Shown: positions 1 through 31,802 of the stretch, piece by piece
Layout: each line of letters begins with the position of its first letter
How positions within the stretch are numbered: position 1 is the stretch's first letter
The notes under the pieces: model-generated
The model's database searches: none
What the model saw: the letters and a program-made list of their open reading frames with translations, nothing else
Told to the model about the DNA's origin: nothing
NCBI GenBank assembly: GCA_016200645.1
Contig: JACQEJ010000051.1
Coordinates: forward strand, 1-45,183
Reading direction: 5' to 3'
DNA: 45,183 bases
Origin: Deltaproteobacteria bacterium
Lineage (GTDB): Bacteria; Desulfobacterota; GWC2-55-46; UBA9637
Made by a program: the position numbers and the translations under genes

Positions 1-659
1 ACCTCGCTGTAAATTCTTTTAACCTCTCCCATCATCCTTGCCCTTTTGTTTCTCTCTGCCACGATAATTGATTTAAGCCTTTCAAACGCATTTTCCAGCT
101 TATCATTGATAATAACATACTCATACCATACCAGCTCTTTGATCTCATTTCGTGCATTTTCCAATCTGCTCACAATTGTTTCATAGCTGTCCTTGCCTCT
201 GTTTCTAATCCTTTCTTCACAGGCTTCCAATGATGGCGGGAGGATAAAGATGAAAACTGCTGACTGTTCACTGTTCACTGATAACTGTTTCTTGACCTGC
301 CGCGCGCCCTGGACATCAATATCAAGGATTATATCCAATCCGTTCGCAAGGAGGGATTGAATGTCTTCATACGATGTCCCGTATCTATTTCCGTGAACCT
401 CTGCCCATTCCAGAAACTTCCCTCGTTCTATCATCTGCTGAAAGGTTGCTTTACTGATGAAGTGATAATCAACTCCATCCGTTTCACCATTTCTAGGGAG
501 TCTTGTTGTGTATGATATAGAATGCCTCAAATCATGGAAATATTCAACCGCCTTCCTGCAAAGCGTTGTCTTGCCTGCGCCCGAAGGGGCGGAGACGATG
601 AAAAGGATGCCGCTCTGAACGATTTTGGATTGCGGATTGCGGATTGCGGATTTATTCAA
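1..659 (-). CDS. gmk: guanylate kinase (3' end runs off the window edge)
   Basis: My own translation of the minus strand gives ...GILFIVSAPSGAGKTTL (P-loop)...YTTRLPRNGETDGVDYHFIS...EWAEVHGNRYGTS...DIDVQGARQV...FILPPS. There is no stop before position 1, so the ORF track misses it. Likely TTG start at 659-657 overlaps the yicC stop (ATTGAATAA), with AGGTG 7 nt upstream. Confidence 0.85.
   Translation of the reverse strand, partial: MNKSAIRNPQSKIVQSGILFIVSAPSGAGKTTLCRKAVEYFHDLRHSISYTTRLPRNGETDGVDYHFISKATFQQMIERGKFLEWAEVHGNRYGTSYEDIQSLLANGLDIILDIDVQGARQVKKQLSVNSEQSAVFIFILPPSLEACEERIRNRGKDSYETIVSRLENARNEIKELVWYEYVIINDKLENAFERLKSIIVAERNKRARMMGEVKRIYSE
257..291. repeat. 7-nt periodic tandem array (ctgctga ctgttca ctgttca ctgataa ctgtttc) inside gmk
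   Basis: Read directly. It encodes the extra segment LSVNSEQS between the conserved QVKK and AVFIFILPPS blocks of guanylate kinase, and the frame is preserved. Confidence 0.8.
627..652. repeat. (GGATTGC)x3 plus a partial heptamer array at the yicC stop / gmk start junction
   Basis: Three perfect units at 627-647 followed by ggatt. On the minus strand it encodes residues 4-11 of the predicted Gmk N-terminus. Confidence 0.9.
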
Positions 660-1524
660 TGTTTTGCACCTGTTCCCGTATCTTCTCCAGCTCCGCCTTT
701 GCCGAAACAACAAGACTGGCCAACTCAAAATCATTGGCCTTTGAACCGATGGTGTTTAATTCCCTTAAAATCTCCTGGCAGAGAAAATCCATTTTTCTGC
801 CAACAGGCTCATTTAATTGGAGCAGATCATTAAACTGCGCTATATGGCTTCTTAATCTTACCAACTCTTCTACAACACTGCTCCTCTCTGCAAAAATTGC
901 GGCTTCCGTTAATAGCCGCGCCTCATCTACATTCGCATCACCCAATAGAGCAGTCATCCTCTGTTTCAGTTTCTCTCCGTATGTCTCCGCCACAACAGGC
1001 GCCCGTGCTTCCATTTTTGCGGCAATATCTTCCATGCAAGCAAGCCTTGAGGCCATATCCCTTGCAAGGGCAGCCCCTTCCTCTTCCCTCATTTTTATCA
1101 GGGAGTTTATTGCAATCTCCAGACCGACTTTCAGCCCCTTCCAATCCCTTTCCATATCATGTTCCGTTTCCCTTGAAGCAAATATATCCTTGAATTTCAA
1201 AAGCAGCGCCATATCGATTTCCTGCTTAAGTCCAAGCTCTTGCCGGAGTTCCTGAAGCGCGCCAAGATAATGCCTGGCCAAAGAAATATTAGGCTTCAAT
1301 ATTCCTGCTGTTTCTCCGGAAGATATGATTGATATATAAAAACAACCTCTGGCGCAGGACTGTTTTACTGCCTCTCTTATCCTGTTTTCTAACAAGAAAA
1401 ATCTGTCAGGGGCCTTGATATTTATCTCTATAAAGCGGTGGTTCACGCTTTTTATCTCAAGGGAAAACTTATCTTCTCCGATTGAAAACTCAGATACGCC
1501 GCAGCCTGTCATACTTTTAAGCAT
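652..1524 (-). CDS. yicC: YicC/YloC family stress-induced protein (putative endoribonuclease)
   Basis: 290 aa. N-terminal MTGCG, and a C-terminal DFLCQEILRELNTIGSKA...EKIREQVQNIE block typical of the YicC N- and C-terminal domains. Confidence 0.85.
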   Translation of the reverse strand: MLKSMTGCGVSEFSIGEDKFSLEIKSVNHRFIEINIKAPDRFFLLENRIREAVKQSCARGCFYISIISSGETAGILKPNISLARHYLGALQELRQELGLKQEIDMALLLKFKDIFASRETEHDMERDWKGLKVGLEIAINSLIKMREEEGAALARDMASRLACMEDIAAKMEARAPVVAETYGEKLKQRMTALLGDANVDEARLLTEAAIFAERSSVVEELVRLRSHIAQFNDLLQLNEPVGRKMDFLCQEILRELNTIGSKANDFELASLVVSAKAELEKIREQVQNIE

Positions 1525-2062
1525 TTATATATGCTTCCTTTTGCAGCTGATGTACATACCGCTCTCTAATCCCCTTCAGCAACCTTCTCATGCTGTTTTC
1601 AGCATAGTCCGGAAATGTCCACTCCAGCGGTTGAAAGTTGTCAGCCCTGTAAATGAGCGTCAAGTCCGCATAGACGCCTTTTTGCAAATATATCCTATGA
1701 GAGAAATTTTTGCAGCTTGCAAGAACCGTCTTTTCCATAGCAATATATCCTGGATCTATGTTTATCATCCTCTTTCTGTTTTCTTTCAAGCATTCATCTT
1801 CCAGCGAATTAGTAAAAAGCTTTATGTCGGGCAAGGAATCGGGTTTTATAAGATTTTCAAAAGAGGCAAGCTTCCTGAATAAACCATCGCCCATTTCATC
1901 TTTATAATAATCGGTATGATTAAAATAGAGCCTCGCGCTTAAAATATCTATGCCGCCGAATTTATCTTCCAGTTCTTTTAAAACGGCTTTGAGAATTCCT
2001 TTATCGCCTGTTATAAGGCTGATTATCAATTTGACCGAATTCGGTTCTTTGGGCATGCTCAT
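1517..2062 (-). CDS. DUF4416 family protein
   Basis: 181 aa. NIDPGYI...KTVLASCKNFSHRIYL...WTFPDY resembles the DUF4416 signature as I recall it. Translationally coupled to its neighbours (8-nt and 4-nt overlaps). Confidence 0.55.
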   Translation of the reverse strand: MSMPKEPNSVKLIISLITGDKGILKAVLKELEDKFGGIDILSARLYFNHTDYYKDEMGDGLFRKLASFENLIKPDSLPDIKLFTNSLEDECLKENRKRMINIDPGYIAMEKTVLASCKNFSHRIYLQKGVYADLTLIYRADNFQPLEWTFPDYAENSMRRLLKGIRERYVHQLQKEAYINA

Positions 2063-3114
2063 CTTTCACTTTTGGACCGAGGCGACCGTGTCGCCGTTTT
2101 CGCCGTTTTGACGCCAACACGGTTGGCTTGCTCCATAGCCCTCTTCAACTCTTCAGGTGTGACCGTGGCTGTCCCAACCTTGCCGACCACGATGCCTGCC
2201 GCAAAGTTAGAGACTACCGCAGCCTCTTTGAAGCTCGCGCCGGATGCTATAGCAAGGGCTACGGCGCCGATAACCGTGTCTCCTGCGCCGCTTACATCAT
2301 AGACCTCTTTTGCAACAGTGGGGATATGAGTTATCTCGCCGCTGTTTTCAAAAAGGCTCATGCCGTGTTCGCCCCTTGTTATGAGAACCGCATCGCCTCC
2401 CAGTTTATTGAGAAGCACCTCGCCCGCCCTCATAAGACTTGCATCATTTTCAATATCAACGCCTGAGGCCTGGGATGCCTCATCATTATTTGGGGTTACA
2501 ATTGTTGCATCTTTGTAGAAATCAAAATGATTGACCTTGGGATCCACGGCAACCGGTTTTCCCTCCTTCCTGGCAAGGCTTATTATCTCTTCTGCCAGCT
2601 CCTGCGATATTACCCCTTTTGCATAATCCGACAGGATAATTATATCAACGGAGCTTATCTTCCTCTTTGCATAATCCAGTATGGTCTTCATGGTATCCAG
2701 ATGTATCTTATCCTTTTTCTCCCGGTCAAACCTTACCACTTGCTGGCTGTGGGCTATAACCCTTGTCTTTACCGAGGTTGGCCTGCTCTCCTCAATAATA
2801 ACCCCGTCCGAAGGTATTCCTTTCAAGCTCATCTCACGCACAAGGTTTTTGCCCGTATCATCCCTTCCCACAACGCCGCATACAAGAACCTTGCCGCCGA
2901 GGCTGCGGATATTATTCACCACATTTGCAGCGCCGCCCAGCATAAGGCTTTCTGAATTAACCTCCACAACAGGCACGGGCGCCTCAGGAGAAATGCGCCT
3001 TACCTTTCCCCAGATGAAATGGTCCATCACAAGGTCGCCTATAACAAGGACAGACGCCCTTTTAAAATTATGAAGGATTTCAATCCCTCGTTTCATTTTT
3101 AAAATGGACTTCAT
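2059..3114 (-). CDS. hldA: D-glycero-beta-D-manno-heptose-7-phosphate kinase (RfaE domain I, PfkB family)
   Basis: 351 aa. VLVIGDLVMDHFIWGKVRRISPEAPVPVV at the N-terminus and DVSGAGDTV near the C-terminus match the PfkB/RfaE kinase pattern. No adenylyltransferase domain is fused. Confidence 0.85.
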   Translation of the reverse strand: MKSILKMKRGIEILHNFKRASVLVIGDLVMDHFIWGKVRRISPEAPVPVVEVNSESLMLGGAANVVNNIRSLGGKVLVCGVVGRDDTGKNLVREMSLKGIPSDGVIIEESRPTSVKTRVIAHSQQVVRFDREKKDKIHLDTMKTILDYAKRKISSVDIIILSDYAKGVISQELAEEIISLARKEGKPVAVDPKVNHFDFYKDATIVTPNNDEASQASGVDIENDASLMRAGEVLLNKLGGDAVLITRGEHGMSLFENSGEITHIPTVAKEVYDVSGAGDTVIGAVALAIASGASFKEAAVVSNFAAGIVVGKVGTATVTPEELKRAMEQANRVGVKTAKTATRSPRSKSER

Positions 3115-3128
3115 TATTCTCCTTTTCC

Positions 3129-3180
3129 GTAGTCACCGACCTTTAGGTCGGTGATGGCGGGTCTAAAGACCCGCCACTAC
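3129..3180. repeat. GTAG-headed REP-like element: outer stem GTAGT/ACTAC enclosing two 8-bp hairpins
   Basis: CACCGACC-TTTA-GGTCGGTG (3134-3153) and GGCGGGTC-TAAA-GACCCGCC (3157-3175) are bracketed by GTAGT (3129-3133) and ACTAC (3176-3180). Intergenic between the GT4 gene and hldA. Confidence 0.65.
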
Positions 3181-3198: not shown

Positions 3199-3942
3199 TC
3201 ATGTCCCTTGGTGAACCGAAGACTCACGGAAGCTGCACTTCATTCCCTCAATAAGCCTTAACAATTTCTCCACATTTTTCTCTATGGTATAGTTTTCTAC
3301 TGTTGTTCTCGCCCGTTTGCCTGCAGCCAGCCTTATCTCTTCATTCAGCAAGGGCTTAATCCTTTCAGCAAGCTCCACAGGATTTGCAGGGTCATTTACA
3401 ATCATGCCGTCTTTTCCGTCCGTGAGGATTTCGGAGACCCCGTTTATTCTTGATGTTATCACCGGCAGCTCGGCTGCCATAGCCTCAAGACAGGCATTGC
3501 TGAAAGGCTCGTAGATGGATGGCAAAACGAATATATCCGCAGCAACGTAGTAGCCTTTGACATCTTTTGCAGGGCCGATAAATTGCACATCACCTGCCAC
3601 GCCGCATCTGTCGGCAACGTTTTGATACTTTTTTATGTCTCCTTTTCCTACAACAACCAATTTGTAGGAAGGGCTTTGCCCGCCATTTTGCCTTTCTTTC
3701 TTTAAAATTCCCAGCGCCTCGATCAAAAACCGCAAGCCTTTTCTCTCAAAACCAGAGCCGACGAACAGAAGGACAATTTCATCCTGCATCTGAAGTTTTG
3801 CTCTATAGGCGATTCTCAGATTGTCCCTCTCATGAAGATTAAACGCCCTGAGATCAATTCCGTTATATATAACACAAATCTTTTCCTCAGGCAAACCGTA
3901 ATGCCTTATTATCTCCTCCTTGCCGCGCACGGAATTTGCCAC
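3199..3942 (-). CDS. GT4 glycosyltransferase, C-terminal fragment of a gene split by a frameshift
   Basis: Contains the GT-B C-terminal domain (FVLPSIYEPFSNACLEAMAAELPVITSRINGVSEIL, an EX7E-like region). The frame stays open upstream to about 4072 (…TSLNPLHLTILYLEKRLFQSKRLKFVV) with no start codon other than GTG at 3942. Confidence 0.8.
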   Translation of the reverse strand: MANSVRGKEEIIRHYGLPEEKICVIYNGIDLRAFNLHERDNLRIAYRAKLQMQDEIVLLFVGSGFERKGLRFLIEALGILKKERQNGGQSPSYKLVVVGKGDIKKYQNVADRCGVAGDVQFIGPAKDVKGYYVAADIFVLPSIYEPFSNACLEAMAAELPVITSRINGVSEILTDGKDGMIVNDPANPVELAERIKPLLNEEIRLAAGKRARTTVENYTIEKNVEKLLRLIEGMKCSFRESSVHQGT

Positions 3943-4009
3943 GACAAATTTTAATCTCTTGCTCTGAAAAAGCCTTTTTTCAAGATAAAGGATGGTTAAA
4001 TGTAACGGG

Positions 4010-4522
4010 TTAAGCGAGGTTATAATTTTTCTTATTGTTCTTTTGGCTTTTGACTTTTGACTTTTCTCTTTGTATCAGCCATTCTCTATGGCAGCCGTCG
4101 CCTGCCCGATAAATGTCCTGATACAATGTCCTTTCAAAACTTATCACCACATCAAGGTTTGCCTTTCTGACAGCAAAATAAGCATTTATGGCAAAAGATA
4201 ATATCCGTAAGAATGAGGGACCGAATGTTTTAATATTGTGAAATATAAGTTTTGACCCCTGCTTACTGCTTGCAGGGGCATGGTTTTGCCCCGAAAATAC
4301 CCCATCCCCACCCCAACCCTCCCCTTGAAGGGGAGGGAGTAAAATAGTCTCCTCTCCCTCAGGGAGAGGATTAAGGTGAGGGTGGGGTAAATTTTCTTCC
4401 CACTCCCTTGCAAATATATGGCATGTATGCCCCTTTGTAAGAAGCGCATCAATAAATCGGGAAAGAAAAACCTCCGCTCCGCCGTATGGCGTATACCGCA
4501 TCCTGACAAGGCCGATGTTCAA
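4010..4522 (-). CDS. GT4 glycosyltransferase, N-terminal fragment (same gene as 3199..3942)
   Basis: The N-terminus MNIGLVRMRYTPYGGAEVF and ...YRAGDGCHREWL are typical of WaaG-like GT4 enzymes. The fragment terminates just after a heptamer tract and carries a palindromic in-frame insert. Confidence 0.75.
   Translation of the reverse strand: MNIGLVRMRYTPYGGAEVFLSRFIDALLTKGHTCHIFAREWEENLPHPHLNPLPEGEETILLPPLQGEGWGGDGVFSGQNHAPASSKQGSKLIFHNIKTFGPSFLRILSFAINAYFAVRKANLDVVISFERTLYQDIYRAGDGCHREWLIQREKSKVKSQKNNKKNYNLA
4041..4068. repeat. Heptamer tract ttttggc ttttgac ttttgac ttttctc (4 units, 28 nt) at the GT4 frameshift point
   Basis: Read directly. On the minus strand it is GAGAAAA GTCAAAA GTCAAAA GCCAAAA. 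Deleting one 7-nt unit fuses the two GT4 fragments in frame (worked out by hand). Confidence 0.85.
4306..4387. repeat. Nested palindrome (outer stem plus two inner hairpins) inserted in frame in the GT4 N-terminal domain
   Basis: Outer stem CCCCACCC (4306-4313) / GGGTGGGG (4380-4387). Inner hairpins are CCCTCCCC-ttgaa-GGGGAGGG (4317-4337) and TCCTCTCCC-tca-GGGAGAGGA (4350-4370). It encodes ...HLNPLPEGEETILLPPLQGEGWGGDG..., which is absent from typical WaaG-like proteins. Confidence 0.7.
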
Positions 4523-5580: not shown

Positions 5581-6850
5581 AGATAACCATTGTAATTGCA
5601 GCCAGCGTAAAGGTAAGAGGTCCGTAGGTTTCTTCCCAGAGCCCGTTTGCAGTATTTATTATGGCGTAAGCCACGAGAACAGCCACTACCCCGTATTTTA
5701 CAAAACAATTCAATTCATCATCTGACCCCTGCCTTATTATCCTTACAACCTTTATGAAAACGGCAAGCCAGAACAAGACAAATGCTGCCAACCCCAAGGC
5801 CCCCGCTTCAAAAAGTATCTGCAGCACAAGATTGTGCGGATTTGCGCTGCCATAATCAGTTTTCTTAAAATAGTCATATGTCCCAGGCCATTTCTCTCTC
5901 CATCTTTCCAGATAACCGTCCTCTCTGACTACCGTCGCAATCTTTTTCCATCCATAACCGTAACCGATAATTGGGCTATCTTTGATTATGTCAATAGCCC
6001 CTCTCCATATATCGCCCCTGCCGCTCAACCCTTCATTTGTTATATATGTTTTAGGAGAAAACAGTGTTTTATACCTGTCAAGCAATTCAGGTTTTTTGAA
6101 ATAACTTATGCCCCCAAGTCCAAGAAAAATAACAATTACAACAGCAAGCATCTTATATCTTTTTGATATTAAGATTATAACAATGATGGAAACTAAAATG
6201 GCCGCTAGTGTTGTCCTTGAACTGTAATAGAGCCACACCAGCGTAAATTCTGCCGATAGCATAACCCAGAAAAACCCTTTCCTATACAGCCTGTCTTTTA
6301 CGCTCAAGAGATAACCGAAGGTAAACGGTATATAAAAAGCCGCATTGAGGGCATACCCCCCTAAAAAGGTCTCTTTGTTTGCCTTTGCTTCAAGGATATT
6401 GAAAAGGGCGGCAGGCGGATTTTTAATAAAAATGATAAGCGTTACGGTGATAAAACTTAAGATGACTGCATACAATAACGATTGAAGTTTCTCAAGGCTT
6501 CTGAATTCAGCCAGTATTACAAAGAATACAACAAGCTGGCAGAGAAAATTTTTTCTGAATGCATTAAGGCTGTCAATTTTATAATCGCTGAAAACAATAC
6601 TGATGAGAATAGCGCCCAGCAATATGCACAAGGCTATGATTGTGCTGTCCTTCCAGTTAATCCCCTGAAATACAAACCTGCCGCCTTTTCTTGCGACCTT
6701 AATCATAAAGAAAAGCAGCATACTGTAAAAAGCAGTATTTCTTATGCCCGCAAAATGATTAAAGGGCTGGAAAAAGATATATATCAAAAGGAGGGGCGGG
6801 ATGAGGGCATAGAGCCTTTCCTCTGTTTTAATCCAAAAGTTTTGAGACAC
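5552..6850 (-). CDS. O-antigen ligase / polymerase family membrane protein (Wzy_C domain)
   Basis: Polytopic membrane protein with SSRTTLAAILV and NPHNLVLQILFEAGALGLAAF motifs. The track ORF reaches 7030 but overlaps the upstream gene by about 200 nt. GTG at 6850 is preceded by GGAGGAGG at 9-nt spacing. ATG at 6901 or 6913 are alternatives. Confidence 0.7.
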   Translation of the reverse strand: MSQNFWIKTEERLYALIPPLLLIYIFFQPFNHFAGIRNTAFYSMLLFFMIKVARKGGRFVFQGINWKDSTIIALCILLGAILISIVFSDYKIDSLNAFRKNFLCQLVVFFVILAEFRSLEKLQSLLYAVILSFITVTLIIFIKNPPAALFNILEAKANKETFLGGYALNAAFYIPFTFGYLLSVKDRLYRKGFFWVMLSAEFTLVWLYYSSRTTLAAILVSIIVIILISKRYKMLAVVIVIFLGLGGISYFKKPELLDRYKTLFSPKTYITNEGLSGRGDIWRGAIDIIKDSPIIGYGYGWKKIATVVREDGYLERWREKWPGTYDYFKKTDYGSANPHNLVLQILFEAGALGLAAFVLFWLAVFIKVVRIIRQGSDDELNCFVKYGVVAVLVAYAIINTANGLWEETYGPLTFTLAAITMVIYEQNRCKGN

Positions 6851-7949
6851 CTTGAAAAACCTCCTCCACCGTAATGTCGGTGACGCACTCTCTGTTCCCA
6901 TAACTGCACGCATAGGGAGCTTTAAATGTATGAGAACAGGGAACACAGGGAAGATTCTTTTGAATGATGACAACCTTGCCGCCGGTTGGCCTCTGATCTG
7001 CCATATCAGAAGGACCTGCGATGTCAACAACAGGTATATTCAACGCGTCTGCCATGTAAATGACGCCGGTGTCAACGCCGATGAAAAGCAACAATCTCTG
7101 CATAAGCGCAGGGAGTTCGGCAAGCGTGAATTTGCCCGCCGCATCAATGACCGCATCTCTGCGCCGCATGATTTTCAGTATTTTATCAGAAACATCCCTG
7201 TCTTTTTCAGAGCCGATAAGCATTACGACTGCGCTGCGCTCCGCTATCAATCTATCCGCAAGGGCTGCCATATTCTCTGCGCCCCATTCCTTGAGCCTGT
7301 TGCCGCTGGTAACGGCAAGGCCCACCGTGGGGCTTGAGGCTTGGGGCTTGGGGCTTGGGGCTAATAATCTCTCAGTTTTTTCATTGGCGTCTGGTGATTG
7401 GAAAACCTCTTTTGAAATATCGTCGTCATCGATGCCGATGGCCTTGAGCATCGCCATATAGGTCTCTGCGACAAGCCTGCCCCGCCTATGCCTTTCAAGA
7501 TATGTAGAAAATATGGATGCCGTCATGTAGGTGATTCCCGCAAAATCAGGCATCACGGAAATTCTTACAGGAATAAGCCCCCAGAACATGGCAATAGTAA
7601 ATGGGACATTTGGGTTGAGCGATATTCCGATATCATATCTACCACTGTAAATAAGCCTCGCCAATTTCACCTTGCCGGCAAATCCTTTATAGAAGTTGCT
7701 TTCAAGAGGTATAATCTCATCCACATATGGATTATGCTCAAGGAGCTCTTTGGTAAGAGGACTTGCCATTACCGACAGACGGGCGTCAGGATATTTTTCC
7801 TTAACCGCCCTGAAACCATGGGTGGAGCAGATAAGATCGCCGATCTTGGCAGTCTGGATTATCAAAACTCGCCGCATCTCTCTTTTCCTGAAAAACAGAA
7901 AAAAGTAGAGGATCGGCGAAGCCAGATAGGTGAGCAACACATAGAACAC
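6828..7949 (-). CDS. GT9 family glycosyltransferase (heptosyltransferase-like)
   Basis: 373 aa. RRVLIIQTAKIGDLICSTHGFRAVKEKYPDARLSVM and a C-terminal Cys cluster CVPCSH...CSYGNRECV. GTG start at 7949; an alternative ATG at 7877 would remove a hydrophobic N-terminal extension. Confidence 0.8.
   Translation of the reverse strand: MFYVLLTYLASPILYFFLFFRKREMRRVLIIQTAKIGDLICSTHGFRAVKEKYPDARLSVMASPLTKELLEHNPYVDEIIPLESNFYKGFAGKVKLARLIYSGRYDIGISLNPNVPFTIAMFWGLIPVRISVMPDFAGITYMTASIFSTYLERHRRGRLVAETYMAMLKAIGIDDDDISKEVFQSPDANEKTERLLAPSPKPQASSPTVGLAVTSGNRLKEWGAENMAALADRLIAERSAVVMLIGSEKDRDVSDKILKIMRRRDAVIDAAGKFTLAELPALMQRLLLFIGVDTGVIYMADALNIPVVDIAGPSDMADQRPTGGKVVIIQKNLPCVPCSHTFKAPYACSYGNRECVTDITVEEVFQGVSKLLD
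7331..7362. repeat. Heptamer array ggcttga (ggcttgg)x3 ggct.. inside the GT9 gene
   Basis: Read directly. It encodes SPKPQASSP and the frame is preserved. Confidence 0.85.
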
Positions 7950-9167
7950 CTAACTTAACACCTCTTCAAAGACCTTGCTGACTCCGCTTATATACGCATC
8001 CATGGAAAATTTTTCCCGCGCCCGCGCTCTCCCTTTTTCACCCATCACATTCCTCAATTCGCTTGAGGCGATCAGTTTTAACAGGGCTTCAGTCAATGCC
8101 TGAGGATTTTTTGCCGGAACCAAAAAGCCGGTTTCGCCGTCAACAACAAGCTCTGACGGGCCGGTTACATCGCATGCAATAACAGGCTTTGCCATAAGCA
8201 TTGCCTCAAGTATAACCCTCGGCAAACCTTCCTGTTCGGAAGATAAAACAAATATGTCCATCGCATTGATATACGAAATCGCATCCGTCTGAAAACCGGT
8301 AAATATCACTTTATCCTGCAATCCCTTTTTCAAAACATCTTCCTGTAAACTTTTTCTTTCAGGCCCGTCGCCGACCACAATAATTTTGAATTTTGAATTT
8401 TGAATTTTGAATTTATTATTCAATTCTCCCACTGCCTCAAGCAAATCATTTATCCGTTTTCTTTTTATCAAGGAACCGACCGTGCCGATTACCATTTCAC
8501 CGTCTCCTATCCCCCATTGCTTTCTTATCTCTGAAACTGCCGTCACCGGGTTGACATTCGGATCAATGCCGTTGTAAACAACAGCGCATTTCCCCGCGTC
8601 AACCCCTTGTTTTACGAACATCTCCTGAACGCCTTGAGAAACACATATCATTTTGGTGAGCCAGTTATTTACCGCATCCACCTCAACCCTATTCAACTCC
8701 GCGCCAATGCGGCTGTGCTGGATGCAGGGGATATTTGCAATCCTTGCGGCCATGATGCCTTCAAGGTTTGACGAGGGTTGATTATTCATATACAGGAGTC
8801 CTATCTTTCGTTCTCTTGAAATTTCTGCTATCCGCGCTGCATTCGGTTTAATCCTGAAATGACAGTCAATCAAAAACACAAAATATTTCTTCAGTTTTTT
8901 ACCGGGGGAAAATATTATCCTTACCGACTCTTTTAATATTTTAGATACAACAGGCTGTTTTTTTTGTTCCAACAGCAGAAAATCTATTCCGAGTTTTTCA
9001 ATCTCCGTCTTTATGTCAGACTCATTACCCTTTTTATAATTATGATAAAACAGGGCAGTGAACTGATATTTGCTCCTATCAATTCTCTTCAACAACTCAA
9101 GGAGGCTGTTTGTCCCGCCGCCCCATTCCTTGCCAGTATCAAGAATAAGAATTCTCTTCGATGCCAT
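7950..9167 (-). CDS. GT4 family glycosyltransferase
   Basis: 405 aa. GGGTNSLLELL at the N-terminus and SEQEGLPRVILEAMLMAKPVIACDVTGPSELVVDGETGFLV form the GT-B EX7E region. Confidence 0.85.
   Translation of the reverse strand: MASKRILILDTGKEWGGGTNSLLELLKRIDRSKYQFTALFYHNYKKGNESDIKTEIEKLGIDFLLLEQKKQPVVSKILKESVRIIFSPGKKLKKYFVFLIDCHFRIKPNAARIAEISRERKIGLLYMNNQPSSNLEGIMAARIANIPCIQHSRIGAELNRVEVDAVNNWLTKMICVSQGVQEMFVKQGVDAGKCAVVYNGIDPNVNPVTAVSEIRKQWGIGDGEMVIGTVGSLIKRKRINDLLEAVGELNNKFKIQNSKFKIIVVGDGPERKSLQEDVLKKGLQDKVIFTGFQTDAISYINAMDIFVLSSEQEGLPRVILEAMLMAKPVIACDVTGPSELVVDGETGFLVPAKNPQALTEALLKLIASSELRNVMGEKGRARAREKFSMDAYISGVSKVFEEVLS
8382..8416. repeat. (AATTTTG)x4 plus a degenerate unit inside the GT4 gene
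   Basis: Perfect units at 8382-8409, then aatttat. It encodes NNKFKIQNSKFKII and the frame is preserved. Confidence 0.9.
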
Positions 9168-10450: not shown

Positions 10451-11623
10451 TCACCTATAACCCAAAACCTTCTTATACACCTCATATATCTTCACTGCAT
10501 TTTTACTTGCGTCAAAATGCCCTTCAACGCGTCTCCTCCCCTTTTGCCCCAACTCGTTTGCAAGGCTGCGATTATCCATAAGCAGGGCGAGCTTTTCCGC
10601 AAATCCGAAAAAATCCCCTGGCACAAAGGTAATGCCTGCATCTCCCACGATCTCAGGGATTGAGCCTGAGGCCGAAGCCACCACTGGTTTGGCGCAGGCC
10701 ATAGCCTCCACCAACACCATGCCGAACTGCTCTTGCCAGGTCATGGCCGGATAGCTTGGACAGACAAACACATCCGCCAGATTATACAGCCTTCTCATGT
10801 CTTGATACGGCGTAAAACCCGCAAAACGGAAATGCCTTTCCACGCCCGCCTCGGCGATGATCTTTTTCAGATTTTCCAATTGCGCGCCTCTGCCCGCGAC
10901 AACAAACCGGAAATTTTTACGGCCGTTTGCCATTAATATTTTTGCGGCATAGGGGAGCATATGCACCCCCTTCCACGAAACAAGTTTGCCAACATAGAGG
11001 ATGATAAAATCTCCCTCATCTATGCTATATTCTTTCAGAAGCCCGGAATACTTGGGTTCCGGTTTGAAAAGGTTCAGGTCTAAGCCGGTATATATCGTAG
11101 TAATCTTCTCTTCCGGCACGTCCTCCAGCAGCATGGTTTTTTTAATGGTATCACACCACGGAATAAAATGGTCTATCATTTCATACGAGCTGTGTTTTAT
11201 ATAGTTAGTTTTGTCGTCAAATATTTGGCGATACGGTATATTCTCGGCATAGCTCACCACGAGTTTGAATCCCGCGCCTCGTCGTTTCAGTTCCGCAAGG
11301 GTGTAAAGAGAGCGGCTTGAATCATGGCATTCCACCAGATCATAATTTTGCAGATATTTACTCAGAGAGTTGAAATAAAAATCCATTTTTTTATACGGAG
11401 CCTTGATAATCCTTGTCAGAGAGCCGGGCAATGCGGACAATCCAAGCAATATCTCCTCTTTGTGGCTCAGTCTCTGCTTTTGCAGTTTCACCTCTTGGAC
11501 ATCAAACTTATTATTTTCCCCGACAAACACCGTCACATCGGTTTCCGGAATATCCACAAGCGGCTCGAACATCTGAGACATCCACTTGGAAACTCCGTTT
11601 TCCCATACAATGCCTATTTTCAC
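10451..11623 (-). CDS. GT4 family glycosyltransferase
   Basis: 390 aa. EQFGMVLVEAMACAKPVVASASGSIPEIVGDAGITFVPGD. Confidence 0.85.
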   Translation of the reverse strand: MKIGIVWENGVSKWMSQMFEPLVDIPETDVTVFVGENNKFDVQEVKLQKQRLSHKEEILLGLSALPGSLTRIIKAPYKKMDFYFNSLSKYLQNYDLVECHDSSRSLYTLAELKRRGAGFKLVVSYAENIPYRQIFDDKTNYIKHSSYEMIDHFIPWCDTIKKTMLLEDVPEEKITTIYTGLDLNLFKPEPKYSGLLKEYSIDEGDFIILYVGKLVSWKGVHMLPYAAKILMANGRKNFRFVVAGRGAQLENLKKIIAEAGVERHFRFAGFTPYQDMRRLYNLADVFVCPSYPAMTWQEQFGMVLVEAMACAKPVVASASGSIPEIVGDAGITFVPGDFFGFAEKLALLMDNRSLANELGQKGRRRVEGHFDASKNAVKIYEVYKKVLGYR

Positions 11624-12749
11624 AATTTTACCCCGACCCCGATGACATCTGTAACTGCGTCAAACACCTCATCCACGCTGATATTTTCCATGCACTTCTG
11701 ATATTCACACTTTTTGCTCACGCACGGATCGCAGGTCTTCCACTTCTGAATAACTCTGTGCTTCTCCTGGTCGTAGTATGGCCCTGTTATTCTATAGTCC
11801 GCAACCGCATACAGCGCCACAACAGATATGCCGACCGCAATGGCAATGTGCATGATTCCTGTGTCGCCTGTAATCAAAACCTTGAATCGTTTCACCAGCG
11901 CCGGCATCTGCTTGAGAGGAATTTTTCCTGCAGAGACAATTATCTCATCTCCAATTTCTTTACCAAGCCTTTCGCAATAATCTCCCTCTGCAGGAGAGCC
12001 TGTAATGACAATCTTCGTCATCGGATACGCTGCAATAAGCCTTTTACCCAGTTCTATAAACCTATCGGCAAACCATATCCTGCTTATTGTTGACGCGCCA
12101 ACCTGAAACCCCACCAGCGCATCAGCGTCCTTTACCCCTTGCTCATTCAGAAACTTGGACACCGCTTCTTCATCTTCAGCTTCTACCGGCAAAACCATTC
12201 TCTTATCTTTGCTGCTGCAGCCAACGATGGCTGCCACCTTTAGCCTCTGCTCTATGCCATGCACAAACTCGGAGGTGGGAGGTGGGGGGCGGGGGGTGGT
12301 ATTGGATAGTAGAAAGCTGTATTCACTCGTATTCGGCAATTTTACAATGAAATGCGCGCCAGCCAGATATGCCATTGGTGTTGCCTGTGGTTCATTTCCA
12401 TGAAATATCAACACAAGGTCAAATTTGTGCTTGCGTAATTCCCGGACTGTTTTGAAAAACTTTTTGTAACCGCCATAGTAGGGGATGATGCCATCTATGT
12501 GCGGATTGTTTTCAAACATCTCCATGTTCGCATTGTTGAAATGGGCGATTATCTTTGCATCAGGATAGCGCTCTCTGACAGCCTTTATTGCAGGCGTTGA
12601 AAGGAGCGTATCGCCGATTGCAGTTGATGATACCACAAGAATATTTCTGACCTTATCCGGATCAAAACATTTTAAACTTGTCTTGCGCCTGTCAAACGCC
12701 TTGAGCAATCTCATAGAAAGGTAAAGAATGCCGTCAACAGGGTGCAGTC

Positions 12750-12753
<4 letters not shown>
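11620..12753 (-). CDS. GT9 family glycosyltransferase (heptosyltransferase-like)
   Basis: 377 aa. NILVVSSTAIGDTLLSTPAIKAVRERYPDAKIIAHF, DTGIMHIAIAVG and a C-terminal CDPCVSKKCEYQKC cluster. Confidence 0.85.
12271..12298. repeat. G-rich 7-nt periodic tract (ggaggtg ggaggtg gggggcg gggggtg) inside the GT9 gene
   Basis: Read directly. It encodes TPRPPPPTS on the minus strand. Confidence 0.75.
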
Positions 12754-13555
<802 letters not shown>

Positions 13556-13559
<4 letters not shown>

Positions 13560-14653: not shown

Positions 14654-14654
14654 T

Positions 14655-15890
14655 TTACCTTTTTAAATGCCTTTCTATTATTTCCATTACTTCATCAACC
14701 GTAATATCTTCCAGACATTTGCTTATCTTGCTTCCGTCGCAGCCGTCTTTGCCGCACGGGATGCACTCCCAATCCCGCTGAATAACCGTGTGCTTCCCAA
14801 ACGTCTGGATTCCATTTCTTTGTGCATATGGAGATTCTAACTTTGAACTTTGAACTTTGAACTTTGAACTGTAGTTATCCCACGGCCCCCAGTGAAATGC
14901 GCCTGACGGGCCGAAAAGCGCCACTACAGGGGTGTCAACAGCAGCAGCGATATGCATAGGCGCTGAATCCACTCCAAAAAAAAGCCTTGCCCTTTTTGAA
15001 ATTGCGCCGAGTTTTTTTAGGTCTATATTCTCGATAAAGGAAATGGGTTTATTTTTGGCAAGTTCAATAATCCTGTTTGCCTTATCCATCTCTCTTTTGT
15101 CAGGACTGCAAGTTATAATGACTTTTGCACGGCACTGTTCTTGAATACGGTCAATGACATCAGCCATGGCCTCATCTTTCCAGCATTTAAAAAGCCAGCG
15201 GGAGGTTGGATGGATATGGACGATAATATCACCCTCTTTGACGCCCTTTTCCTTCAAGGCAGCGCTCAGCCATTTCTCGTCGTCCTTTGAGATATAAAAG
15301 TCAATAGCTGCAGGCTGAAGGCTGAAGGCTGGTCGTAAGACCTCTTTATCAGGTCTTATGCCGGCATTGCTTAAAAGTTCAAGATTTTGAAGAACAGTAT
15401 GGCTGTCCCTATCAATCGAGAATCTATGGGTATATAAAAATTTCTTGCCGGCAAAACCTCCGGCTTGCTCACAACCTATACGATACCTTGCCCCGCTCAA
15501 AAATGAATACAATGCCGGCCTGTCACCGCCTGTTAAATCAATTGCCATATCAAAATGTCTCTCCCTTATTTTCTTTACGAAAGAAAGCTCATACATGATT
15601 CTATTTAAAAAAAATCGCTTGGAGTATAAATTTTTCTGACCCCTGACCCCTGACCCCTGACCCCGGTAGTTAAGCATAGACCTGTCCAGCGACATAATCT
15701 CATCAACACACGGATTGCCAAGAAGCGCATCCTCTGTTCCTGAATTTGCAAGCGCTGTTATGCAGGCAAAGGGGAAGGCATCTTTTAATATCCTTATGGC
15801 AGGGGTTGTAAGCAGCACATCGCCGATGTGGCGGAGTTTAATGACAAGGATTTTTCTTATATCTTTAAACTCACTTCTCACTTCTCGCAT
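14655..15890 (-). CDS. GT9 family glycosyltransferase (heptosyltransferase-like) carrying three heptamer arrays
   Basis: KILVIKLRHIGDVLLTTPAIRILKDAFP, VDSAPMHIAAAV and a C-terminal CIPCGKDGCDGSKISKC cluster. ATG at 15890 (MREVRSEF...) is preferred over the track start 16031, which lies deep inside the upstream GT2 gene. Confidence 0.8.
   Translation of the reverse strand: MREVRSEFKDIRKILVIKLRHIGDVLLTTPAIRILKDAFPFACITALANSGTEDALLGNPCVDEIMSLDRSMLNYRGQGSGVRGQKNLYSKRFFLNRIMYELSFVKKIRERHFDMAIDLTGGDRPALYSFLSGARYRIGCEQAGGFAGKKFLYTHRFSIDRDSHTVLQNLELLSNAGIRPDKEVLRPAFSLQPAAIDFYISKDDEKWLSAALKEKGVKEGDIIVHIHPTSRWLFKCWKDEAMADVIDRIQEQCRAKVIITCSPDKREMDKANRIIELAKNKPISFIENIDLKKLGAISKRARLFFGVDSAPMHIAAAVDTPVVALFGPSGAFHWGPWDNYSSKFKVQSSKLESPYAQRNGIQTFGKHTVIQRDWECIPCGKDGCDGSKISKCLEDITVDEVMEIIERHLKR
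14839..14873. repeat. (AACTTTG)x4 plus a degenerate unit inside the GT9 gene
   Basis: Perfect units at 14839-14866. It encodes SSKFKVQSSKLES. Confidence 0.9.
15313..15333. repeat. (GGCTGAA)x2 plus ggctggt inside the GT9 gene
   Basis: Read directly. It encodes part of AFSLQPAA. Confidence 0.7.
15637..15664. repeat. (TGACCCC)x4 inside the GT9 gene
   Basis: Four perfect units. It encodes RGQGSGVRGQ. The reverse complement GGGGTCA matches the motif that flanks the RAYT gene. Confidence 0.9.
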
Positions 15891-16639
15891 CTCACATCTT
15901 TTTTTGACATCTCCCGGAGTTTGGCATATTTTGAGAAAGTATATGCCGAATAGAGGCCTGACAGGATAACGCCCATATAACCTTCCAAAAAGCCCTTCTG
16001 CAAAAAAAACATCTTTAAAAAAGTAAAGCACGGTCTAAAAATTAAATCTAACAACCCTGTATTCTTCCCATTTTTAAACATCTCCTCGGCCGCAAGCGTT
16101 GAATATCTGTCCATCCTCTTTAGATAATCGCTTACATCCCTATATGTATAATGCTCTAACGGAGTCTTAAGATAGCCAGCCTTTCCTTGAATCTGAACAG
16201 CCTCATGTACATCGCGCTCATTAAATTGCCCTTTGTCCTTTTTATAGAGCCTTAGATTATAATCAGGATACCAGCCGCAATATCGTATCCACCTGCCGCC
16301 AAAGAAATTTTTACGCGGGATATTGTAGCCATCGCAGCCGCCATTGTTCAAAACCGATTCTATCTCTTTCCTCAGTTCAGGCGTAACCCTCTCGTCCGCA
16401 TCAATATTTAAGAGCCAGTTATTTTTAGCCCTGCCTGCAACTAAATTCTTCTGTTTGCCAAAACCATGCCATTCGTCAACAAAAACCTTTGCGCCGTATT
16501 CCTTGCAAACATAGACGGTTTTGTCGCTGCTTCCCGAATCAGAGACAAGTATTTCGTCAGCCCATTTTACGCTTTCAAGACAGGCACGGATGTTTTCTTC
16601 TTCGTTGAGGGTTATTATAGTGACGGAAATCTTTTGCAT
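15878..16639 (-). CDS. GT2 family glycosyltransferase (LPS core, WaaE/KdtX-like)
   Basis: 253 aa. ISVTIITLNEEENIRACLESV...ILVSDSGSSDKT and NIDADERV (DXD-like). First gene of the minus-strand operon. Confidence 0.85.
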   Translation of the reverse strand: MQKISVTIITLNEEENIRACLESVKWADEILVSDSGSSDKTVYVCKEYGAKVFVDEWHGFGKQKNLVAGRAKNNWLLNIDADERVTPELRKEIESVLNNGGCDGYNIPRKNFFGGRWIRYCGWYPDYNLRLYKKDKGQFNERDVHEAVQIQGKAGYLKTPLEHYTYRDVSDYLKRMDRYSTLAAEEMFKNGKNTGLLDLIFRPCFTFLKMFFLQKGFLEGYMGVILSGLYSAYTFSKYAKLREMSKKDVRCEK

Positions 16640-17579: not shown

Positions 17580-17621
17580 AAATGGGAACAAATGGGGTCA
17601 AATGGAACGTCTGGGGTCAAA
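17580..17621. repeat. Three AAATGGnnnn units and two GGGGTCAAA motifs downstream of the RAYT gene
   Basis: GGGGTCAAA at 17594-17602 and 17613-17621. The AAATGG units have a 10-nt period across 17580-17609. Confidence 0.7.
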
Positions 17622-18646: not shown

Positions 18647-18682
18647 TGACCCTTTGACCCACTCTGACCCTTTGACCCACTC
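18647..18682. repeat. Perfect 18-nt direct repeat x2 (TGACCCTTTGACCCACTC)
   Basis: Copies at 18647-18664 and 18665-18682, located upstream of the RAYT start. Confidence 0.9.
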
Positions 18683-22039: not shown

Positions 22040-22067
22040 ATGAGCTAAACAACGGAGGTTTTACCCA

Positions 22068-28248: not shown

Positions 28249-30216
28249 GTGCTGGCAATGGCAATCCTTTTTACAGCGGTTGTCATATACCAGCAGGGCA
28301 GCCTTTTAAAGAAAGACCTTACGGACAAAGGGCTCTCTATTGCAAAAAATCTTGCGCATAACAGCGAGCTCGGGGTATTTACAGAAAACGCTAAATTTAT
28401 TGAGCCCATTGTAGAGTATTTTAATATCAAGGCAGAAGAGGATGTTGTCTATGCCGCTATTTACAACATAAAGGGAAAGATAATCTATGAGTATGTAAAA
28501 GGGGACAGGGGCAGACCTCGCAGCATGGATGAGATAAAAGAAAGGATTGATGCGGAAAATGGAACATTCTGGGAGAAGATAATCTTCAATAATAACACCA
28601 TCTATGAATTCTGGGCGCCTGTCATTGTGTCTGCTGCACTTAAGGGGGAGGAGATGGTTGTGGAGGGGAATAAAGGGGGAGGGGGCAGGCCCGTAGGTGT
28701 TGTTCAGTTAGGACTCTCGTTAAAGGGTATTGATGCCAGTTTGAGGGATATCATCTGGACAAGCATATCCATAACCCTCATCTTCCTTCCCGTTGGATTT
28801 ATACTTACCTATATTACGGCAAGAAGGATAGTGGAGCCAATCTCAAGGCTCAAAAAGGGCGTGGAGGCGATTGAACAGGGGGGAAAATACGAGCCGATAG
28901 AAATTAAATCTGAAGATGAGATAAGGCATCTGGCATTATCGTTTAACAGGATGGTGGATGCCCTCCAGAAAAAGGATACGGAGATTATGCAGCATATAAG
29001 AGAGCTTTCAGCCATAAACTCAGTTGCCTTTGCTGTGAACCAGTCCCTTGACTTAGGCATTACCATTCATCACGCCTTAAGAGTGGTAATAAAGCTGACA
29101 GGCATGGAGGCAGGCTGGGTCTATCTCTTATCAGAAGATGGGGGCCTGCTTAGGATTACAGAATATGAAGGGGTTGCTCAAGGGTTTATTAAAAAGATTG
29201 ATCTCCTGAAACACGGGGAAGGCATAGCAGGCATGGCGGTGATTTCAGGAGAGCCTATTGTTGAAGAAGACATCACAAATGATCCCAGAATCACAAGGGG
29301 CGCTATATGGGAAGCTGGGTTCAAGGCATTTGCCAGCATTCCATTGTGGTCAAAAGAAAAGACGCTGGGCGTATTGAATATAACATCCCATGCTGTCCAC
29401 CCTTTTAGTCAGGATGAAAGAGAGATGCTCTCATCCATCGGCAGCCAGATAGGAACAGCAATAGAAAACTCCATGCTCTATGAAAAGATTAAGAGCCAGA
29501 TTGAAGAGATAGAGAGGACTCAGGACAGACTCATCCACGCTGCCCGTTTGGCATCCCTCGGCGAACTTTCAGCAAATGTCGCGCATGAGGTGAATAACCC
29601 TTTGACAGGCATACTCACCCATACATCAATGCTCATGGACGATACACCTGACACAGACCCGAATAAGAAGAGATTGAAGATCATATACGATGAGACCATT
29701 CGCATAAAACACATCGTAAGAAACCTCCTTGATTTTGCAAAATACTCGGAGCCAAAAAAGGAAAATATATGTATACAGGATGTTATCAAGGAGACATTGG
29801 GTCTCATAGCGCATCTTGCAAAGGTCTCAAATGTGGAGATAGTGGAAAATTACCATGAGGATGGGCCGACAATGGTTTCCATTGATGTTGCGCAGATAAA
29901 ACAGGTCCTGCTGAACCTCTTTAATAACGCATTATACGCTATGCCAAACGGAGGGTTATTAAAGATAACGGTATTGAAGACCACAGATTGGGTGGAGAGC
30001 TGCATTGAGGATACCGGCTTAGGCATACCGCAGGAGATTATCCATAAGGTCTTTGACCCGTTTTTCACCACCAAGCCTTCAACAAAGGGGACCGGCCTCG
30101 GGTTATCAATAAGCCACGGAATAATAGAAAGGCATGACGGGAAAATAGAGGTAAAAAGTGAAATCGGAAAAGGGAGCATCTTCACGATAAGGCTGCCGCG
30201 GGCAAAAGATTCATAG
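28249..30216 (+). CDS. Sensor histidine kinase (TM, periplasmic domain, TM, HAMP, GAF, HisKA, HATPase_c)
   Basis: H-box LGELSANVAHEVNNPLT; N, G1 and G2 boxes (LFNNALYAM, DTGLGI, GTGLGLS). The frame is open upstream to 28051 and encodes KGFRARVFWLVTILV, the missing half of TM1. The start is therefore probably upstream via the C tract (see findings). Confidence 0.85.
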   Translation: MLAMAILFTAVVIYQQGSLLKKDLTDKGLSIAKNLAHNSELGVFTENAKFIEPIVEYFNIKAEEDVVYAAIYNIKGKIIYEYVKGDRGRPRSMDEIKERIDAENGTFWEKIIFNNNTIYEFWAPVIVSAALKGEEMVVEGNKGGGGRPVGVVQLGLSLKGIDASLRDIIWTSISITLIFLPVGFILTYITARRIVEPISRLKKGVEAIEQGGKYEPIEIKSEDEIRHLALSFNRMVDALQKKDTEIMQHIRELSAINSVAFAVNQSLDLGITIHHALRVVIKLTGMEAGWVYLLSEDGGLLRITEYEGVAQGFIKKIDLLKHGEGIAGMAVISGEPIVEEDITNDPRITRGAIWEAGFKAFASIPLWSKEKTLGVLNITSHAVHPFSQDEREMLSSIGSQIGTAIENSMLYEKIKSQIEEIERTQDRLIHAARLASLGELSANVAHEVNNPLTGILTHTSMLMDDTPDTDPNKKRLKIIYDETIRIKHIVRNLLDFAKYSEPKKENICIQDVIKETLGLIAHLAKVSNVEIVENYHEDGPTMVSIDVAQIKQVLLNLFNNALYAMPNGGLLKITVLKTTDWVESCIEDTGLGIPQEIIHKVFDPFFTTKPSTKGTGLGLSISHGIIERHDGKIEVKSEIGKGSIFTIRLPRAKDS

Positions 30217-30347: not shown

Positions 30348-31802
30348 ATGCCAAGAGAAAACATACTGATTGTAGATGACGAGCCTGTAATCCTCAATGT
30401 GGCCTCTGAGATACTACAAAAGGCTGATTACAGGATAACGACCGCAGGCGATGGATTGGAGGGGTATCATAAGGTCAAGGAGGGGTTATTTGACCTTATT
30501 ATTACTGATATAAAGATGCCGAAGATGAACGGCATGGACCTCATCCAGAAGATAAGGCAGGAGATCTCCACAGATATGCCGATCATTATCATGACAGGAC
30601 ACGGGACAATAGACATTGCCATTGAGTCCCTTAAGCACGGGACTCACGACTTTATTATGAAGCCGTTCACTTCCCATGATCTCAGGGAATCTGTAGAGGA
30701 TGCTATTAGAAAAAGCAATCTCATAAAGGAAAATATAAAACTCAAGGCGCTGCTCCCTATCTTTGAGGTAAACAAAAGACTTTTAAGCGAATTAAACATA
30801 GAAAGGCTTATGCAAAGCATTGCTGCAGAGGCAGCAAGGTATACCGGGGCGGAAAGGGTATCTCTTATGCTGATGGATAGACAAGATGGATGCCTTACCC
30901 TGAAGGCGTCGAGAGGTATGGAGATATATCCCGATAAACCCATAAAGATAAAACCCGGCGAAGGCATATCCGGTTGGGTTGCGGAAAAAATGGAGCCCCT
31001 TCTTCTCAATGAAAGCATAAAAGGCCCTTTAAAGGATATGATGATAAAAAACGAGATAAAGTCCGCCTTGTGCATGCCGATTATAGTAAAGGGGGAGATG
31101 CTCGGCGTGCTTAACCTCTCAAATGTGAACAATGCCAGAATATTTACACACTCGGACATGGAGACGATCTCTGTCCTGTGCGGACAGGCAGGCATTGCCA
31201 TAGAAAACGCCAGACTCTATGAGAAGATTGAAAACTCTTATATAGGGATAATAGAGACGCTTGCCAATGCCATAGAGGCAAGGGACCCGCGCATTGCCGG
31301 ACATGCGATGCGCATGGCGGACTACTCATGCTCCATTGCCGCAGAGATGGGCATATCGGAGGGCGAGATTGAGCTAATCAACAAGGCCGCGCTCCTCCAT
31401 GATATAGGAAAGATCGGCATACCCGACCGTATATTATTAAAACCTGAGAGTTTAACAGATGAGGAAGATGTGATTATGAAGAGGCATCCTGAAATCGGCG
31501 TGAAGATATTGGACCGGATAGATGGCTTCAAAGAGATAAAAAGGCTCATAATACACCATCATGAATTTTACAACGGCGAGGGATACCCGTCAGGCTTGAA
31601 GGGTGAAGAGATACCGGTCGGCTCAAGGATTATTGCAGTAGCCGATGCCTTTGAGGCAATGACCGCCACCACAAGGCCATATCGTGAATCGGTGAAGCCG
31701 ATAGACGCCGTGAATGAGATCAAAAGGATGAGCGGCATACAGTTTGATCCTCAGGTGATGGATGCCCTTGTAAAGGTACTGCGAGCCAAGGGGGCGATAT
31801 AA
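30348..31802 (+). CDS. Response regulator with REC, GAF and HD-GYP domains (putative c-di-GMP phosphodiesterase)
   Basis: 484 aa. The REC domain has DLIITDIKMP. The HD-GYP domain has LLHDIGKIGIPD and HHHEFYNGEGYPSG. Confidence 0.85.
   Translation: MPRENILIVDDEPVILNVASEILQKADYRITTAGDGLEGYHKVKEGLFDLIITDIKMPKMNGMDLIQKIRQEISTDMPIIIMTGHGTIDIAIESLKHGTHDFIMKPFTSHDLRESVEDAIRKSNLIKENIKLKALLPIFEVNKRLLSELNIERLMQSIAAEAARYTGAERVSLMLMDRQDGCLTLKASRGMEIYPDKPIKIKPGEGISGWVAEKMEPLLLNESIKGPLKDMMIKNEIKSALCMPIIVKGEMLGVLNLSNVNNARIFTHSDMETISVLCGQAGIAIENARLYEKIENSYIGIIETLANAIEARDPRIAGHAMRMADYSCSIAAEMGISEGEIELINKAALLHDIGKIGIPDRILLKPESLTDEEDVIMKRHPEIGVKILDRIDGFKEIKRLIIHHHEFYNGEGYPSGLKGEEIPVGSRIIAVADAFEAMTATTRPYRESVKPIDAVNEIKRMSGIQFDPQVMDALVKVLRAKGAI

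Follow-up and report, generated by a model that had tools for sequence, protein, structure and literature searches.

Heptanucleotide repeats that switch a surface-polysaccharide enzyme are known from neuO, the O-acetyltransferase gene of the CUS-3 prophage in Escherichia coli K1. There the 7-nucleotide (nt) unit lies within the coding sequence, the enzyme is full-length only at unit numbers divisible by three, and in-frame tracts encode 7-residue repeats; 3-53 units occur, most often 20, and 66% of genomes are OFF (PMC13001214). The glycosyltransferases of lipooligosaccharide and lipopolysaccharide (LOS and LPS) synthesis in Neisseria (lgtA/C/G), Haemophilus (lic2A/lgtC), Campylobacter and Helicobacter are established cases in which a frameshift at an intragenic simple sequence repeat (SSR) truncates the enzyme (PMC2651432). 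The case described here is of this known kind: an LPS glycosyltransferase gene is frameshifted at an SSR, with a heptamer unit and in an environmental lineage. It was found in a contig of 45,183 nt from a ‘Deltaproteobacteria bacterium’ (JACQEJ010000051.1, assembly GCA_016200645.1; the whole stretch is called the window), where a WaaG-like gene of glycosyltransferase family GT4, at 3199..4522 on the minus strand, is disrupted according to open reading frame (ORF) calls, Pfam and comparison with homologues.

The window gene has the 7-nt unit, the position within a coding sequence and the divisible-by-three rule of neuO. The neuO tract, however, lies at the 5' end and is perfect and usually long, whereas the window tract is mid-gene with two perfect units; and neuO switching has been measured, whereas here about 16 orthologues are ON and the window alone is OFF, as read from sequences only. 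The pathogen LOS/LPS loci share the gene class and mode of truncation, but they have long mono- or tetranucleotide tracts, come from host-adapted species and vary in length between near-identical strains. The window tract is instead a short imperfect heptamer from an uncultured groundwater bacterium, and tract length is stable over 5-11% divergence in a related subclade. A third relevant class comprises the heptameric SSRs, or short tandemly repeated repetitive (STRR)-type repeats, of Nostoc/Calothrix and Xanthomonas, which show a similar enrichment of period 7, loci shared by relatives, variation in length and sequence, and inverted array pairs (PMC4692102). These are mainly intergenic and use one or few unit sequences, in contrast to the tracts of the window's clade, which are mostly intragenic (48 of 61 examined in the window and its relatives), in frame and built from many different units.

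The disrupted gene is best explained as a recent null allele generated by slippage, reversible in principle and not a tuned high-frequency switch, a reading to which a probability of roughly 0.6 can be given. The allele is read as a loss of function at strain level, either a pseudogene in its first stage or a standing polymorphism of the LPS core.

The split gene and its heptamer tract

The N-terminal ORF (4522..4010, minus strand; 170 aa) has a TTG start, matches positions 1-38 of the Pfam Glyco_transf_4 profile (PF13439) and is 76% identical to the orthologue in the related locus L004; it ends in 14 out-of-frame codons (VKSQKNNKKNYNLA) followed by TAA. The C-terminal reading frame (3199..4074, minus strand; 77% identity to L004) holds the rest of the N-terminal domain (PF13439 positions 116-168) and a complete C-terminal domain (Glycos_transf_1, PF00534, E=2e-36). 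The earliest start in this frame is a GTG at 3942, giving an ORF of 247 aa (3942..3199). Since the C-terminal frame is open back to a TGA at 4077..4075, the true overlap of the frames is 4010-4074 rather than the 4021-4072 of a preliminary description of this DNA. That description also took the pieces to be the N-terminal and C-terminal domains; the Glyco_transf_4 profile is divided across both ORFs, so the break lies within the N-terminal Rossmann domain and not at a domain boundary.

Homologues bear out the view that the two ORFs are one gene split by a frameshift. With the repaired protein as query, thousands were found at E<=1e-10, and the best 120, the window's own fragment excepted, are all single chains; the full-length ones have 360-450 aa, they come mainly from ‘Deltaproteobacteria bacterium’ or Thermodesulfobacteriota metagenome-assembled genomes (MAGs), and the closest are 67-77% identical. 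None of the more than 100 homologues checked is split at the break site. The possibility, raised earlier, that the gene is naturally encoded as two proteins is rejected, because the homologues are all unsplit and the break falls inside a domain.

The presence of an N-terminal Glyco_transf_4 and a C-terminal Glycos_transf_1 domain places the protein among the GT4 enzymes of GT-B type. By sequence, its top match among solved structures is E. coli WaaG (2iv7; phmmer, E=2e-24). An AlphaFold (AF2) model of an intact orthologue, P0010, has the GT-B fold with a mean predicted local distance difference test score (pLDDT) of 90.8, and its top Foldseek match is likewise 2iv7 (E=5e-27, TM 0.79/0.85; TM 0.79-0.87 for WaaG). 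No NCBIfam equivalog reached its cut-off with the GT4 protein, the best being TIGR03088 at 108 bits against 409. The gene neighbourhood includes an HldE kinase domain (TIGR02198, 408 against a cut-off of 345), heptosyltransferase III (TIGR02201, 205 against 170) and three further GT9 genes, an RfaL-like (O-antigen-ligase-like) gene, additional GT4 and GT2 genes and a polysaccharide deacetylase gene, a context that fits a predicted role in heptose-containing LPS-core synthesis. E. coli and Pseudomonas aeruginosa WaaG, the UDP-glucose:(heptosyl)LPS alpha-1,3-glucosyltransferase, are thus alike in best sequence and fold match and in heptose-LPS context, but identity is only ~20%, the window gene has lineage-specific in-frame inserts, and its WaaG-like activity is predicted. 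On sequence and model, the label ‘WaaG-like GT4’ seems justified, with identity as WaaG itself unproven.

The overlap contains, as first described, the tract GAGAAAA GTCAAAA GTCAAAA GCCAAAA on the minus strand (4041..4068). Its four unit slots occupy 4068-4062, 4061-4055, 4054-4048 and 4047-4041, and only the middle two are identical, so that the perfect repeat is 19 nt; Tandem Repeats Finder (TRF) reports period 7, 3.7 copies and a score of 45. In-silico deletion of one unit gives a single ORF of 438 aa with the junction ...HREWLIQREKSKAKRTIRKIITSLNPLH..., exactly as the preliminary description had translated it by hand, and insertion of two units gives one of 445 aa. The gene stays truncated when one unit is added or two are removed. 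The in-frame sizes are therefore three and six units. The earlier assignment of four units to OFF and three to ON holds in that four units break the frame and three keep it, but the likely in-frame ancestor had six slots.

The same site in related genomes and the origin of the frameshift

A heptamer tract occupies the same codon position, in frame, in 12 of 12 related loci, and the frame is likewise kept through the tract in four more fragments of homologous proteins that cover the site. In the comparison with related genomes, which the preliminary description had proposed, only the window is out of frame. The distance between the sequences for GDGCH and NPLH is 90 nt in tract-free homologues and 117 nt in nine of the related loci, with 108, 114 and 129 nt in the other three; in the window it is 103 nt. 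The commonest state in relatives is thus six unit slots (27 nt beyond the tract-free homologues), against four in the window. Two of the relatives, L009 and L002, have the window's own flanks (GAGAAAAG... / CA[GA]AAGAACAATAA[GA]AAAAA), of which the shared left one begins GAAAAG, but six slots between them; by this comparison the window is short by exactly two slots (14 nt).

The unit itself differs from lineage to lineage: CAAAAGT in the window, CAAGGGT in L004, CATGGGG in L009, CAGAAGT in L002, CAGGAGT in L015-L020 and GCAAAGG in L001. That the units are lineage-specific yet uniform within each tract indicates that the tracts have contracted and expanded repeatedly over evolutionary time. On a shorter scale, tract length is stable in a related subclade. 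L014, L015, L016/17 and L018/20, which have 89-95% DNA identity, all have six slots, and the length of their N-terminal tract is equal too. A scan of metagenomes with a degenerate left flank found seven contigs; they belong to other lineages, and each is in frame.

The most parsimonious event would be the loss of two units (14 nt), from six slots to four, by a slipped-strand change in the length of this intragenic heptanucleotide microsatellite, which would inactivate the WaaG-like gene. The ribosome would leave the frame after Lys-156, read 14 wrong codons and stop, and the product would be the 170-aa fragment, without part of the N-domain and without the entire catalytic C-domain; the LPS core would presumably be truncated. 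Removal of one unit or addition of two would provide a route to reversion. No second stop or frameshift was found in the window gene against L004, and its halves, at 76-77% identity to L004, are inside the 57-85% range for neighbouring genes. As in a recent pseudogene, the frame is broken where orthologues are intact, but there are neither added lesions nor raised divergence. If the gene is a pseudogene it is, by its sequence, probably a young one, and the absence of any other lesion indicates that the allele is recent.

That the WaaG-like gene is also lost by other means is shown by L009 (JACRNI010000048.1, 6720-6745; MAG NC_groundwater_1931), whose orthologue has a ~130-nt internal deletion and a frameshift, with its own heptamer tract in frame. 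Loss of this orthologue was independent and through deletion, which indicates that the gene is dispensable in nature; irreversible loss of the GT4 gene therefore occurs as well.

The four-unit allele might instead be an artefact of assembly or consensus, the organism's tract being in frame (with six units, for example) and either collapsed by the assembler or represented by a minority variant. The window is probably a metagenome-derived contig of an uncultured organism, de Bruijn graphs can collapse tandem repeats, and all relatives are in frame at the site. However, the perfect repeat that remains is shorter than the usual assembly k, and a collapsed cycle should keep at least k perfect-repeat bases; given also that 13 other tracts in the window are in frame, assembly collapse is unlikely. 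Indels of 7 or 14 nt are atypical as read errors. Independent assemblies of the same strain offer evidence on both sides. Logan contigs L021-L024 (SRR12113409, SRR12113410, SRR12113411), traced through exact-product look-ups for DUF4416 and GT4_c, are 99.9-100% identical to window 277-3152 and 13224-14864, matching it gap-free over 2.9 kb and 1.3-1.6 kb, with the tract at 627-652 included. They break, however, inside heptamer tracts (at 277, at 13224, where L022 ends within the tract 13219..13251, and twice at 14864) or in a hairpin resembling a repetitive extragenic palindrome (REP) at 3152. Such ends could come from 31-mers common to tracts of the same unit, or from length heterogeneity. The GT4 tract is covered by none of the same-strain contigs from these three runs. 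Exact-product look-ups for both GT4 pieces, PfkB, GT9_a and GT4_b gave no match; two large protein searches returned no GT4 protein closer than about 75%, the window's own fragment aside; and a literature search for the three run numbers had no match. Taken together, an artefact seems distinctly improbable.

It is far harder to credit that the split gene is still functional, through +1 ribosomal frameshifting in the overlap (for example a slip of Lys-tRNA on AAG-AAA-AAU, 4031-4023) or as an enzyme assembled from its two pieces. The C-terminal frame is indeed +1 relative to the N-terminal frame, and from the sequence the A-AAA-A run in the overlap permits perfect re-pairing. Nevertheless, there is no known stimulator at this site: no stop or rare codon where the shift would occur and no Shine-Dalgarno sequence upstream. 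The arrangement is not conserved, every relative having a single frame. Programmed +1 frameshifting and transcriptional slippage are both rejected, the A5 run being the sole candidate site, lacking known stimulators and not being conserved. A split enzyme would have its break inside the N-terminal Rossmann domain, a start at the GTG at 3942, before which no ribosome-binding site is visible, would leave out the conserved NPLHLTILYLEKRLF helices, and no homologue is naturally split.

Period-7 tracts and the question of phase variation

Counting arrays of at least 3.5 copies, the window has 14 of period 7, the GT4 tract among them, whereas 20 composition-preserving (first-order Markov) shuffles give an expectation of 0.0. 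Other periods from 5 to 12 give 0-1 arrays each. Twelve of the 14 are in coding sequence, and nine of these 12 sit in the 14.6-kb LPS cluster, which makes up 32% of the window, a density of intragenic tracts ~6x that of the remainder. Of the nine, the GT4 tract alone breaks its gene; the other eight keep the frame or lie where two genes meet.

Similar tracts in other genes of the operon had been pointed out at the outset, and they are present, all on the minus strand. The tract at 7328..7362 (AGCCCCA x5) is in a GT9 heptosyltransferase gene (6828..7949), that at 8382..8414 (CAAAATT x4.7) in a GT4 gene (7950..9167), that at 12269..12299 in a GT9 gene (11620..12753), and that at 13219..13251 (CAGGAGT x4.4) in the polysaccharide deacetylase gene (12750..13559), each of them in frame. 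Four more, likewise in frame, lie at 14839-14872, 15307-15335, 15636-15666 and 15870-15899, three in a heptosyltransferase-III-like gene (14655..16031) and the fourth at its junction with a GT2 gene; the tracts of this stretch (14839..15899) translate as FKVQSSK, PAFSLQP and GQGSGVRGQ. The overlap at 15878-16031 was considered as a second frameshift and rejected, being the GT2/GT9 gene junction.

Outside the LPS cluster, the guanylate kinase gene gmk has two in-frame tracts (256-287 and 627-652), and one more is in frame in the inter-domain linker of carA, the gene for the small subunit of carbamoyl-phosphate synthase (41733-41764); each has 3.7-4.6 units. L003 and L004 also have the N-terminal tract of gmk at the same position, built of a different unit. 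The tract at the YicC/gmk junction turns over as the GT4 tract does: the window has GCAATCC, L003 GAAATCC and L004 AAGAAGC; a candidate second frame-breaking tract at 9724-9760 of L003 proved to be this same gene junction.

Does this pattern reflect phase variation? A true contingency locus would have the WaaG-like gene ON at three or six units and OFF at four or five, switching often enough to be of use; together with the LPS genes that carry the other tracts, it would make the LPS core vary combinatorially, for instance against phages. Much of the logic is in place: the SSR is intragenic, its unit length is not a multiple of three, changes in unit number toggle the full-length ORF under in-silico editing, the gene class is classically phase variable, and neuO provides a precedent for a coding heptanucleotide switch (PMC13001214). 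Further points in favour of switching also weigh against the null allele preferred here. The concentration of tracts in the LPS cluster is what a contingency system would look like. Slippage does occur, as the homogenisation of units and the turnover of tracts between lineages show. The gene is otherwise intact, as expected of a reversible OFF state, and the ends of the same-strain Logan contigs inside heptamer tracts could be caused by length heterogeneity in the population.

The properties of the tract itself argue the other way. SSR indel variability climbs steeply with tract length (PMC3315296), and the known heptanucleotide switches are usually far longer (PMC2651432, PMC13001214); the hmw tracts of Haemophilus influenzae have 13-38 units (PMC2651432). 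With two perfect and two degenerate units (19 nt of perfect repeat), the window tract lacks the length and perfection of a hypermutable one. Nor are ON and OFF alleles both common in relatives, all 12 related loci and the four protein fragments being in frame at the site, and the unit count is constant across 5-11% DNA divergence in four lineages. Only one gene-breaking tract was found among the 61 examined, the GT4 tract, leaving no other in the OFF state. Tracts of equal size occur in gmk and carA, two genes in which it would be costly to shift frame often; the tracts lie at ~18-82% of protein length with no N-terminal bias; and the L009 orthologue was lost through an irreversible deletion and frameshift. 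The preliminary proposal of a dedicated ON/OFF switch with combinatorial surface variation thus receives little or no support from two perfect units, in-frame relatives and stable counts, and a true phase-variable locus is unlikely. Since a tract with only two perfect units is expected to slip at a low rate, strain-level loss of function is to be preferred over a dedicated switch. A related and also doubtful idea is that the many intragenic tracts of this groundwater clade might form low-copy contingency loci concentrated in the LPS-core operon, the window recording one gene in the OFF state of a population that is a mix of LPS-core glycoforms, for instance as a defence against phages.

Whatever the switching rate, the tracts are a feature of the whole clade. 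These uncultured groundwater ‘Deltaproteobacteria’ (about 42-44% G+C) have many period-7 tracts, mostly in frame in protein surface loops and with positions conserved between relatives. The density of tracts per 10 kb is 0.7-13 in the close relatives (L001-L004, L009 and L014-L020) and 2-6 in most of them; none was found in the more distant homologous loci L005-L008 (~48% protein identity). Lineage-specific slippage biased towards heptamers might seed and homogenise in-frame 7-residue loop inserts at conserved positions of the proteome, essential genes included.

The structure of the enzyme suggests how it tolerates tracts that are in frame. The P0010 model gives the peptide of the N-terminal tract (residues 46-57) a pLDDT <50 and places the peptide at the studied site (residues about 121-140) between two helices, with a pLDDT of ~71. 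On alignment to 2iv7 the studied site falls at about residues 103-125 of WaaG. These form MIR-WaaG, a membrane-interacting region that is basic and amphipathic (PMC7558818), and added residues rich in K, R, S and Q would plausibly be harmless at the equivalent position.

Two further observations concern the heptamers. Many coding-strand units in the window and L001-L020 share a GTCA core (GTCAAAA, GTCAGGA, GTCAGAA, GTCAAGG, GGGTCAG), which may be a sequence preference of the tract-generating process. In addition, inverted pairs of intergenic arrays, TAGCTCA-type facing TGAGCTA-type, occur at 21951-22048 and 41085-41150. They give hairpin arms of 22-40 nt, one pair downstream of holB and the other upstream of carA, and the two loci have sequence in common.

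Other repeats in the window and meaning for the lineage

The WaaG-like gene has acquired inserts of other kinds. An element of 4253..4396 (minus strand), resembling a REP or a miniature inverted-repeat transposable element (MITE), lies in frame in the GT4 N-domain and was recognised by folding and comparison with homologues. It encodes ENLPHPHLNPLPEGEE...GQNHAPASSKQGS, a translation also given as PHPHLNPLPEGEE...GEGWGGDG...GQNHAPASSKQGS, and as single-stranded DNA it folds into two hairpins within an outer stem (-40.8 kcal/mol, z=-6.2). The insert is common to P0001, P0004 and P0005 and missing from most other homologues, and a repeat search of the window brought up this copy only. At the corresponding site P0010 has a different insert, a heptamer-tract peptide, in a disordered loop (pLDDT <50). 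A third variable site follows LKKE (columns 315-345 of alignment A1, window about 3660-3690), where several GT4 orthologues have (SRVGxAHQEIHGQN)GGQSP(PY) and the window has RQNGGQSPSY. The likeness of this peptide to the tail of the N-terminal insert (GQNHAPASS) suggests a further inserted element that recurs.

Elsewhere in the window, the product of a minus-strand gene at 17628-18590 is a fusion of a REP-associated tyrosine transposase (NCBIfam NF047646, 85.5 bits with the cut-off at 80) and a helix-turn-helix of DnaA_C type; the gene is flanked by short direct repeats, TGACCCTTTGACCCACTC twice at 18647-18682 and AAATGGGAAC-type at 17580-17621. A nested cluster of REP-like palindromes at 28060-28155 (CCCCCACACCTTG...CAAGGTGTGGGGG, with two inner hairpins) is followed by a run of 24 C at 28181-28204; a HAMP-GAF histidine kinase gene (28249..30216) lies downstream of the 200-nt gap that contains the run. 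The run could be a real homopolymer switch or an element of the untranslated region, or an artefact of sequencing or assembly. Between the same histidine kinase gene and a response-regulator-GAF-HD gene (30348..31802) is a 100-nt A+T-rich array (30230-30331) with nested 8-, 16- and 31-nt periodicity (TTATAAAGTAGAAAG...), which may be a set of putative regulator binding sites.

If the GT4 allele is a slippage knockout and nothing else, strains of an uncultured groundwater lineage differ in the composition of their LPS core, and annotators of these MAGs are cautioned that a gene can be split by a 7-nt tract. The more interesting lead is the lineage-wide pattern of intragenic in-frame heptamer tracts, conserved in position and with units re-homogenised in each lineage. 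Over-representation of heptamers in bacteria is known and poorly explained, and has mostly been described in intergenic DNA. Heterogeneity of tract length at the level of reads, if true, would extend the biology of contingency loci to free-living subsurface bacteria, and low-copy contingency loci, if that is what the tracts are, would represent SSR phase variation with an unusual unit length in a free-living, non-pathogenic, uncultured lineage.

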